Source: Escherichia coli
GTDB taxonomy: Bacteria; Pseudomonadota; Gammaproteobacteria; Enterobacterales; Enterobacteriaceae
Reading direction: 5' to 3' (one strand)
Length of the DNA: 64,000 bases
NCBI RefSeq assembly: GCF_013122565.1
Contig: NZ_CP053258.1
Position numbers and translations under genes: made by a program. Of this stretch, positions 5,535 to 6,779 are shown piece by piece (the stretch's first letter is position 1; every line of letters begins with the position of its first letter). The notes under the pieces are model-generated. The model made no database searches. It had not been told where the DNA came from and was given only the letters and a program-made list of their open reading frames with translations.

Positions 5535-6779
5535 CTATAGCTGTTTATTCCAGAGATGCTTGAAAATATCTAATGTGGAGACAACATTGGCAGGCGACAT
5601 TCGGTTTAATGAGGATAGAAAGGGATGAGACTCCAGGAAGTTGATAAAACGAGTCGCGCTTGCTAACGTCGAATACCGCAATTCATTTGCTTTCTTGTTT
5701 CCTGTAAGGTTACAAACAGCCATTGAATAATCACGGGCGGAAAATGCACGCCAAACATTATTTCTCACGCCACCACTCAAAAACAACCGCGGCGGCGTAT
5801 CATAATGAGTCGTTTTCTCGCCGCGTTCTTTCACAAAGGAAATATGGCACCGGCCTTGATGAATATGCTGTAAATTAGCCATTAGACAACCGCCTAATAT
5901 AAAGCACTCGTGATCAAGGTAGTGTTGAATATTTATAGAATATGCTTCAGTCAGTACTCTAACCAGTTCAAAATGGCGATACGCCGGAAGAACCGGTTTC
6001 ACCAGCATCCCCGGATCGTTTTGATGTAATATCGCCCGACCATAATCAATATCAAATAAAGTATCACGTCGCATAGTAAGTAACTCCTTGCGTTGTACGT
6101 GATGCGCCAGTGTACCTGGAGACAAACGCTCTTCATAACTTGATGCATATTGATAATGCGACTCTACCGCTGATGGAGAATAATTTGTTGAAATAGCGAC
6201 GACTCTACCGCTTTGTTCTTCTGCGGTAACAAGGCTATAAAGATAGTTATTACTACCGTTAAACTTTACGCGAAAAGCGCGGGTAGATAGAGAAATATCA
6301 GAAGCAGAAGAGTATTGGTAACTTTCTTTATAGTTTACTTCCCGGGCTAGTTTCATCAATTCACGGTTAAGCCCTGTGCTATTAAGAAGTAATAATTTAC
6401 GGATATCAGCAAGTGAAGCGCCTTGCTCAATCATCAATGCTAAATGTGTTCTTCGCGGCGTTGTATTTACATGATCCAGAGTTATAAAAGTTCTGGAACA
6501 ATGATGACAATACATTCTCCTCTGCCCCTGAGCTGAATAGCCATACTTTTTCATAGATGTGCTTCCGCAAGCTGGACATTGTGAAACCAACCCTCGCCAT
6601 GAATGATTAACACGATTACGATAAATATTAAGAGATCGTTCAGATATCACAGGAAACAAGTACCCGCATTCCCGACATAAAATATTTTTGCCTTGTACAA
6701 TATAATCCTGACTATTCAACAACCCCAAGTTTCTACATCCTGGTGTTTTGCAACAATCAACATTTACGTTGGTAAACAT
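5535..6779 (-). CDS. Hypothetical Cys-rich protein: N-terminal InsA-like zinc ribbon plus HTH, C-terminal ~300-aa domain of unknown function
   Basis: Contains CPACGSTSMKKYGYSAQGQRRMYCHHCSRTF followed by an HTH-like stretch (ALMIEQGASLADIRKLLLLNSTGLNRELMKL), the same pattern as the IS1 InsA N-terminus, plus an extra upstream Cys cluster (CCKTPGC...CRECGY). Start chosen at the MFTNV Met, which has an AGGAAG RBS; the track ORF start at 6815 is the alternative. No CX3CX2C radical-SAM motif. Confidence 0.6.
   Translation of the reverse strand: MFTNVNVDCCKTPGCRNLGLLNSQDYIVQGKNILCRECGYLFPVISERSLNIYRNRVNHSWRGLVSQCPACGSTSMKKYGYSAQGQRRMYCHHCSRTFITLDHVNTTPRRTHLALMIEQGASLADIRKLLLLNSTGLNRELMKLAREVNYKESYQYSSASDISLSTRAFRVKFNGSNNYLYSLVTAEEQSGRVVAISTNYSPSAVESHYQYASSYEERLSPGTLAHHVQRKELLTMRRDTLFDIDYGRAILHQNDPGMLVKPVLPAYRHFELVRVLTEAYSINIQHYLDHECFILGGCLMANLQHIHQGRCHISFVKERGEKTTHYDTPPRLFLSGGVRNNVWRAFSARDYSMAVCNLTGNKKANELRYSTLASATRFINFLESHPFLSSLNRMSPANVVSTLDIFKHLWNKQL

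Follow-up and report, generated by a model that had tools for sequence, protein, structure and literature searches.

Domesticated DDE transposases that act as host regulators are well known in eukaryotes, and very few, to our knowledge, have been documented in bacteria. Domesticated transposon-derived regulators include the plant FHY3/FAR1 proteins, which come from Mutator, and the bacterial TldR repressors, which derive from TnpB. Among insertion sequences (ISs), the InsA protein of IS1 is a DNA-binding repressor of IS1 that recognizes the ends of the element. In addition, the eukaryotic ZBED proteins are transcription factors domesticated from a hAT transposase (PMC3606216). The present analysis concerns a 64-kb stretch of an Escherichia coli chromosome (hereafter the window) and, within it, an open reading frame (ORF) on the minus strand at positions 5535–6779 (hereafter the target gene). 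This gene lies downstream of a sulfatase gene, and its product joins an InsA-like N-terminal part to about 300 further amino acids (aa). The first-pass annotation of the window had offered three options for it, namely a domesticated transposase-derived regulator of the sulfatase, a degenerate IS1-family single-ORF transposase, or a new accessory factor.

We propose that the target protein is a domesticated (exapted), catalytically dead DDE-type transposase and most likely a DNA-binding regulator of the sulfatase operon, a reading to which we assign a probability of roughly 55%. The two parts of this reading differ in strength. Domestication is well supported by the architecture of the protein, the absence of a catalytic triad and of terminal repeats, the single copy per genome, purifying selection, and conserved synteny. 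The regulatory role, which we infer, is favored by the combination of a helix-turn-helix (HTH) with zinc ribbons, the divergent arrangement of 6/7 distant homologs, and a conserved candidate operator.

Domain architecture and immobility

The cysteines of the target protein (residues 9, 10, 15, 35, 38, 68, 71, 91, 94, 292, 298, 311, and 356) include two N-terminal clusters. The first comprises C9/C10/C15 and C35/C38 (CCKTPGC...CRECGY), and the second follows the pattern C68-P-A-C71 ... G-Q-R-R-M-Y-C91-H-H-C94-S-R-T-F. Both had been pointed out in the first-pass annotation, the second as an InsA-like C-P-x-C pattern, and both are confirmed by the sequence itself, the second also by domain models and by profile alignment. 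The NCBIfam model NF050000 (IS1/IS1595 N-terminal Zn-binding domain) matches aa 68–99 with an E-value of 1.9e-9 and 37.9 bits (cutoff 28 bits), and NF048018 (IS256 N-terminal 4-Cys domain) also scores above its own cutoff (E 9e-8). When the family profile was compared with IS1 InsAB' in hhalign, residues 64–145 aligned with InsA 4–88 (probability 95.9%, E 6e-9), an alignment that spans both the zinc ribbon and the HTH. The earlier placement of the InsA-like region at about residues 80–150, followed by an HTH, also agrees with these results, as that numbering fits a longer 426-aa reading of the ORF. The cysteines of the first ribbon are invariant or nearly so among 42 family members, and the ribbon has predicted beta strands at residues 26–29, 32–35, and 41–43. 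In structure comparison, the HTH resembles LuxR-type DNA-binding domains. The protein thus carries two classical 4-Cys zinc ribbons homologous to the DNA-binding domains of transposases. Searches of PHROGs, and of PDB sequences with the family profile, matched only the zinc ribbon/Cys pattern, with spurious C2H2 matches.

For the C-terminal ~300 aa, the first-pass annotation found no motif that could be assigned. This still describes the sequence, over which Pfam reports nothing significant and no domain of unknown function (DUF), and it does not extend to the structure, as this part is predicted to adopt the core fold of DDE transposases. Homologs were collected in two steps, which gave 61 close clusters, all from Enterobacteriaceae, and then 114 representative clusters that include ~40 full-length proteins at 20–33% identity. 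An alignment of 42 sequences (mean column identity about 31%) was used to build an AlphaFold2 model, which has a mean predicted local distance difference test (pLDDT) score of 91.5 and a predicted template modeling (pTM) score of 0.91. From the N-terminus, the model consists of ribbon 1 (residues 8–43), a helix, ribbon 2 (66–100), the HTH (108–153), a core (161–307), a beta subdomain (311–357), and a helical tail (364–413). The core has the predicted RNase H-like fold that is characteristic of DDE transposases and integrases, and its residues R238, H269, and F270 are conserved family-wide. Comparison of the C-terminal family profile with IS1 InsB in hhalign gave a probability of 0.4%, the Pfam model DDE_Tnp_IS1 had no match on the target protein, and the full family profile showed no likeness to the multi-zinc-ribbon IS1-like protein P0146 beyond the zinc ribbon and the HTH. 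A protein search with InsB returned, among the matches listed, only near-identical IS1 copies, so the set collected with InsB was unusable for a profile-profile test.

A family of DDE enzymes requires three conserved acidic columns. In the target family, E291 is the sole column with D or E in all 42 members, and the next best columns reach 67–74%. By the order of secondary-structure elements, E291 opens the helix that follows beta5, the place of the catalytic E in DD35E-type enzymes. The mid-beta1 position is taken by T166/R167 and the post-beta4 position by K261/P262, where P262 is almost invariant. Acidic residues occur at 167 (E) or at 261 (D/E) in a few distant members, and in none at both positions. 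At the level of the alignment, the two catalytic aspartates have been lost throughout the family, and the protein is presumably catalytically dead. The first-pass annotation had failed to see a DDE triad, and rightly, because the triad is truly absent from the 42-sequence alignment. A cryptic triad of D161, D255, and E291 was considered and rejected. Both aspartates are conserved in the sulfatase branch only, and the topology would place them at the N-terminal ends of beta1 and beta4, at the edge of the sheet opposite E291.

The target gene is a functional host gene and is not mobile. Together with its upstream spacer, the ORF is present in 1280 of 5426 complete E. coli genomes, in one copy each and never on a plasmid. 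The ratio of nonsynonymous to synonymous substitution rates (dN/dS) between the allele in the window and that of strain CFT073 is 0.093 (84% aa and 80% nucleotide identity), which indicates strong purifying selection. A search for inverted repeats around the gene had been suggested beforehand as a test for an IS remnant; no flanking pair was found in the window or at five related loci, which speaks against a remnant. Furthermore, tblastn searches with InsA and InsB revealed no IS1 copy in the window, and the curated IS1 equivalog model NF033558 scored 31.7 bits on the target protein against a cutoff of 100 bits, with only profile positions 1–86 matched. Among the properties of an IS1 transposase, the protein therefore has the N-terminal InsA-type zinc ribbon and HTH, and it lacks a score above the model cutoff, a DDE triad, inverted repeats, and mobility. 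What it does have are the properties of a domesticated transposase, namely purifying selection, an orthologous single-copy locus across species, and lost transposon ends.

The E. coli alleles of the target gene fall into two classes, with 230 genomes at 95–99% identity or better and about 1050 genomes at about 81%. Between the window (positions 4117–9183) and CFT073, the target gene is 80% identical at the nucleotide level, the sulfatase and ompK-like genes are 90% identical, and nhaA is 93% identical, compared with 98.5% for dnaJ. The neighboring nhaAR region has been reported to differ between B2 and non-B2 strains and has been linked to extra-intestinal virulence (PMC4182557). The unusually high divergence of the island and nhaA between the strain of the window and B2 strains fits that pattern.

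The sulfatase operon and related neighborhoods

The target gene is part of a three-gene island that lies between mokC/hokC-dnaJ-dnaK and nhaA-nhaR, with all genes on the minus strand (Table 1). For synteny, one genome per species was scanned, and 21 species were found to have an ortholog, including four Escherichia species, Salmonella, Citrobacter, Klebsiella, Kluyvera, Kosakonia, Phytobacter, Buttiauxella, Franconibacter, and others. In all 21 species, as well as in the window and CFT073, the gene is directly downstream of the sulfatase gene and on the same strand, with the maturase gene in between where it is present. The association with sulfatase genes, which the first-pass annotation had suggested checking, is thus consistent at these loci. 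In 14 of the 21 species, a gene for anSME, the radical-SAM/SPASM anaerobic sulfatase maturase, lies between the sulfatase gene and the target gene and ends 12–30 bp before the latter. The target gene is retained in species where anSME has been lost, counted as 8 of the 21. The ancestral operon had anSME between the two genes, and Escherichia lost it. A Tsx-like channel gene is found upstream of the sulfatase gene at most loci; in Salmonella, some Citrobacter, and Klebsiella spallanzanii, it is inverted and adjoins a 5'-nucleotidase-family gene. The cluster adjoins nhaA in most genera and is located elsewhere in Scandinavium, Atlantibacter, Buttiauxella, and Franconibacter, and the sulfatase cluster therefore travels as a unit.

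RefSeq annotates the 1245-nt version of the ORF as an [quoted passage not shown] and in CFT073 and other B2 strains it is listed as "hypothetical protein." The 426-aa reading would start from an ATG at 6815. All homologs open with the motif MF..NV(D/N)CCKT, and because of this common N-terminus and the RefSeq annotation, the ATG at 6779 is taken as the real start. An intact ORF with its own AGGAAG ribosome-binding site, just after a terminator-like palindrome, had been described in the first-pass annotation, and all of these elements are in place. The hairpin stands where other genera carry the anSME gene, and the spacer that holds it has an RNA fold z-score of -3.05. A promoter-like sequence between the hairpin and the ribosome-binding site is a consensus match only, and such sites are no more frequent in the spacer region than in shuffled sequence.

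Table 1. Features of the target gene, its protein domains, and the surrounding operon in the window.
Feature	Position	Strand	Remarks
Target ORF	5535–6779	-	Complete, 414 aa + stop; stop codon 5535–5537, ATG at 6779
C-terminal beta subdomain + helical bundle (predicted)	5538–5849	-	aa 311–357 with conserved W343; aa 364–414 with conserved N411
RNase H-like (DDE-transposase fold) core (predicted)	5859–6299	-	aa 161–307; beta1-beta2-beta3-alpha-beta4-alpha-beta5-alpha
HTH region	6321–6458	-	aa 108–153; three helices
Zinc ribbon 2, InsA-like	6480–6584	-	aa 66–100; C68, C71, C91, C94, R88
Zinc ribbon 1, N-terminal	6651–6758	-	aa 8–43; C10, C15, C35, C38, with K11
Shine-Dalgarno-like AGGAAG	6785–6790	-	5 nt upstream of ATG; read from sequence
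Promoter-like TTGACA-17-GATATT	6794–6822	-	10/12 consensus matches; between hairpin and ribosome-binding site
Intrinsic-terminator-like hairpin	6831–6861	-	14-bp stem, 3-nt loop, T-rich tail TCTTTTCTTT; after sulfatase gene
Periplasmic S1 sulfatase	6909–8402	-	497 aa; formylglycine-position residue Ser79, codon AGT at 8166–8168
OmpK/Tsx-family outer-membrane channel	8422–9183	-	First operon gene; PF03502 in homologs
CRP-like palindrome	9295–9310	-	TGCGATCTTCATCACG; TGTGA-N6/8-TCACA conserved in 16/16 upstream regions
Element 1, asymmetric motif (candidate operator)	9344–9359	-	ACACACTTTTTGAAAC, consensus CAACAYWTTYTGACAC; 38–49 bp upstream of CRP-like site

The distant branch of the family provides a second view of its neighborhoods. 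Seven loci with homologs at 20–30% identity were read individually (L010, L011, L013, L015, L016, L017, and L040), and these come from Photobacterium, Proteus, Klebsiella pneumoniae, Salmonella Give, and metagenome/other assemblies. Genes for nucleotide or nucleoside scavenging adjoin all seven homologs, and no sulfatase gene is nearby. Six homologs are in divergent orientation to these genes, and P0124 shares a strand with its neighbor. The neighbors include deoB, a PNP/UDP-family phosphorylase gene, and a nucleoside symporter gene for P0094 (L010); NupC and PNP/UDP-family phosphorylase genes for P0098; a transaldolase-family gene, add, deoC, deoA, deoB, and a PNP/UDP-family phosphorylase gene for P0087; and a PNP/UDP-family phosphorylase gene for P0124 (Photobacterium). 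Both P0086 (K. pneumoniae, L016) and P0203 (Proteus, L017) adjoin a ~520-aa 5'-nucleotidase-family gene, and P0110 (Salmonella Give) is located beside genes for a porin, a class B acid phosphatase, and a class II phosphodiesterase (PDEase_II). CRP-like sites are present in the intergenic regions beside these homologs. What these neighborhoods share is an outer-membrane channel combined with a periplasmic hydrolase and genes for uptake or catabolism, and the sulfatase operon is one variant of this theme.

These neighborhoods bear on the most plausible of the alternatives, which is that the target protein assists sulfatase biogenesis as a non-regulatory accessory factor, such as a metal/Cys-rich chaperone, an anSME helper, or a coupler of maturation and export, and that it acts on protein rather than on DNA. 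The protein is indeed Cys-rich, and its gene always follows the sulfatase/anSME genes on the same strand and with tight spacing. Moreover, how sulfatases mature in E. coli is only partly understood, and a third maturation system has been suspected (PMC8379841). However, that system was reported in E. coli laboratory strains. Strain K-12 is not known to carry this sulfatase island, and most complete E. coli genomes lack the target gene. The family homologs located beside nucleoside/nucleotide genes have neither sulfatase nor anSME as neighbors, and the gene is kept after anSME loss; both observations weaken the accessory-factor option of the first-pass annotation. In addition, the cysteines form two 4-Cys zinc ribbons of the DNA-binding transposase type, and the target protein contains no CX3CX2C motif, as had been noted at first reading, and no Radical_SAM, SPASM, or FGE domain match in Pfam or NCBIfam, so it has no radical-SAM or FGE signature. 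We consider such an accessory function unlikely.

Several observations concern the sulfatase itself. At all Escherichia loci checked (the window, CFT073, Escherichia sp. MOD1, E. albertii, and E. whittamii), Ser occupies the formylglycine position of the sulfatase (motif SSPSR), and the codon, which was read at four of these five loci, is AGT in those four. All non-Escherichia loci with a readable motif have Cys (TGT or TGC; motif CSPSR). The Escherichia loci with a Ser sulfatase are those without an anSME gene in the spacer (6780–6908 in the window). The dN/dS of the sulfatase gene is 0.028, indicating strong purifying selection. The Ser79 sulfatase of Escherichia may be matured in trans (by AslB, YdeM, or YidF) or may work differently.

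Elsewhere in the window, a fimbrial usher ORF (292–3114) encodes 616 aa and is shorter than full-length ushers; its counterpart in the closest genome is annotated as N-terminally truncated or frameshifted pseudogenes. The mokC/hokC locus is present at 9706–9948, and no IS lies between mokC and dnaJ, whereas the closest genome has IS421 there.

Candidate operator and proposed role

The region before the first operon gene was aligned for 16 loci. Only two conserved blocks were found in this otherwise unalignable upstream DNA, namely a CRP-like palindrome and an asymmetric motif that we call Element 1. The strict pattern of Element 1 is present at 11 loci and a degenerate version at four more. 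In the 64-kb window, the Element 1 site is the only exact match, and one more site has a single mismatch, for a total of two that is about the chance expectation. Salmonella, with its inverted channel gene, has a strong copy of Element 1 that faces the channel gene and a weaker one that faces the sulfatase gene. Two other interpretations of Element 1 were rejected: the halves are direct rather than inverted repeats, as opposed to a second CRP site, and no conserved -10 element follows and the spacing to the CRP-like site varies (38–49 bp), as opposed to a -35 box. Our hypothesis, drawn from sequence conservation, is that Element 1 is a candidate operator of the target protein. As a side observation, the intergenic regions L017 6832–7000 (Proteus) and L010 4021–4290 (P0094) have in common the 11-mer CAACACAAAAT (reverse strand). 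Its CAACAC core is also found in Element 1 of the sulfatase operons, which may reflect a common recognition core or chance.

When a single divergent gene encodes DNA-binding domains and adjoins a CRP-dependent catabolic operon, it has the standard layout of a specific regulator. In the mechanism that we propose, the zinc-ribbon/HTH module of the target protein would bind a specific site at the operon promoter. The candidate is Element 1, which precedes the conserved CRP-like site by about 47 bp. As InsA is an end-binding repressor, the step from binding transposon ends to binding an operator would be a short one. The dead RNase H-like core, with the conserved residues R238, H269, E291, and W343, would serve as a domain for oligomerization and/or effector sensing. 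Together with cAMP-CRP, the protein would switch the scavenging operon on or off, and the distant members may play the same role for the nucleoside/nucleotide scavenging modules next to them.

A wider claim follows this line, and we advance it tentatively, at somewhat less than even odds. The family may represent ligand-responsive transcription factors of Enterobacterales and Vibrionaceae that derive from an IS1/IS256-like DDE transposase, with the dead core acting as a sensor or oligomerization domain and the former end-binding zinc-ribbon/HTH module reading asymmetric operators like CAACAYWTTYTGACAC. Together with cAMP-CRP, these factors would control modules of a channel and a periplasmic hydrolase, in which sulfatases, 5'-nucleotidases, acid phosphatases, or phosphodiesterases are combined with genes for nucleoside uptake and catabolism.

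Several points weigh against a regulatory transposase derivative. Element 1 could belong to another factor. The K. pneumoniae paralog P0086 (L016 7001–8137; 378 aa), a widely conserved protein with 2053 member sequences, has both zinc ribbons and the RNase H-like core and lacks the whole HTH segment, which suggests that the HTH is dispensable for the role of the family. In the sulfatase branch, the gene closes the operon and, where the maturase gene is present, starts 12–30 bp after it; accessory or maturation factors typically occupy such a position as well. The catalytic positions were placed by the order of secondary-structure elements in the model rather than by residue-level superposition. 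Finally, the invariant R238, H269, and E291 could reflect a non-canonical enzymatic activity instead of sensing.

This last point leads to the second alternative, in which the protein is an enzyme on the RNase H-like fold with a non-canonical site (H269, H290/E291, and R238) and a nucleic acid or nucleotide as its substrate. R238, H269, and E291 are invariant or nearly so despite the low mean column identity, and the family is consistently tied to genes of nucleotide/nucleoside metabolism. Nevertheless, the two zinc ribbons and the transposase-type HTH point to sequence-specific DNA recognition, and 6/7 distant homologs are divergent single-gene neighbors of a catabolic operon, which is the classic layout of a regulator. 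Moreover, no RNase H-like enzyme is known to work with just one acidic residue, and the target protein is cytoplasmic whereas the neighboring hydrolases are periplasmic. An enzymatic function appears slightly less probable than the accessory role discussed above. The least plausible alternative, a decaying or still-active IS1-family single-ORF element inserted by chance beside the sulfatase gene, can draw on a truly IS1-like N-terminus and on the frequent database label "IS1 family transposase," but it is effectively refuted, together with the corresponding option of the first-pass annotation, by the lack of inverted repeats and of a DDE triad, the low score on the IS1 equivalog model, the single copy at one locus in all 1280 E. 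coli genomes, the same synteny in 21 species across genera, and the low dN/dS.

About one complete E. coli genome in four carries the target gene, the B2 uropathogens CFT073 and ST131 among them, and the gene also occurs in Salmonella, Citrobacter, Klebsiella, and their relatives; the wider family reaches Vibrionaceae and Proteus. No full-length model of the family exists in Pfam or NCBIfam, and database names of its members vary from "IS1 family transposase" to "cytoplasmic protein" and "lactate dehydrogenase," a common mis-annotation. Our literature search found no study of this protein family, and PMC4182557 merely draws a "putative cerebroside sulfatase" module. If the regulatory role is true, the protein would provide a handle on an uncharacterized sulfatase island beside nhaAR, would set these database names right, and would show the reuse of a dead RNase H-like core.

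Comparison with known systems

The target protein resembles IS1 InsA/InsAB' in having a 4-Cys zinc ribbon followed by an HTH, and in the order of a DNA-binding module before a predicted RNase H-like core. Unlike IS1, it has no detectable sequence similarity to InsB, no DDE triad, and no inverted repeats, and its gene is single-copy, syntenic, and encoded in one ORF without a frameshift. It also carries an additional zinc ribbon at the N-terminus and about 100 additional residues at the C-terminus. The predicted core is comparable with those of the IS256/Mutator-type ISCth4 transposase (PDB 6XG8) and the IS4-type Tn5 transposase (1MM8), at 8–11% sequence identity and with the catalytic aspartates absent from the target protein, and the NCBIfam "IS256 family transposase, variant Zn-binding type" is also among the nearest systems. 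Because the N-terminus is IS1-like, the core is closest to IS256/IS4, and similarity to InsB is lacking, the IS family of origin may be either IS1-like or IS256-like.

In function, the closest parallels may be found among nucleoside regulators. Proteins of the CytR/DeoR type regulate CRP-dependent nucleoside promoters (tsx, deo, udp, and nupC) in E. coli. Similarly, the target family adjoins tsx-like, deo, udp/deoD, nupC, and 5'-nucleotidase genes with CRP-like intergenic sites. However, CytR (LacI-type) and DeoR (DeoR-type) have no homology to the target family.

Among domesticated proteins, ZBED, FHY3/FAR1, and TldR have all kept a DNA-recognition module, lost catalysis, and become fixed host genes with control over adjacent or scattered genes, as the target protein appears to have done, with regulation being the part that we infer here. 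It differs from ZBED and FHY3 in its transposase superfamily and its bacterial host, and from the RNA-guided TldR in that nothing in the target locus suggests a guide RNA. Taken together, this bacterial, operon-linked, and DDE-derived domesticated family appears to be a new variant of domesticated transposase regulators.

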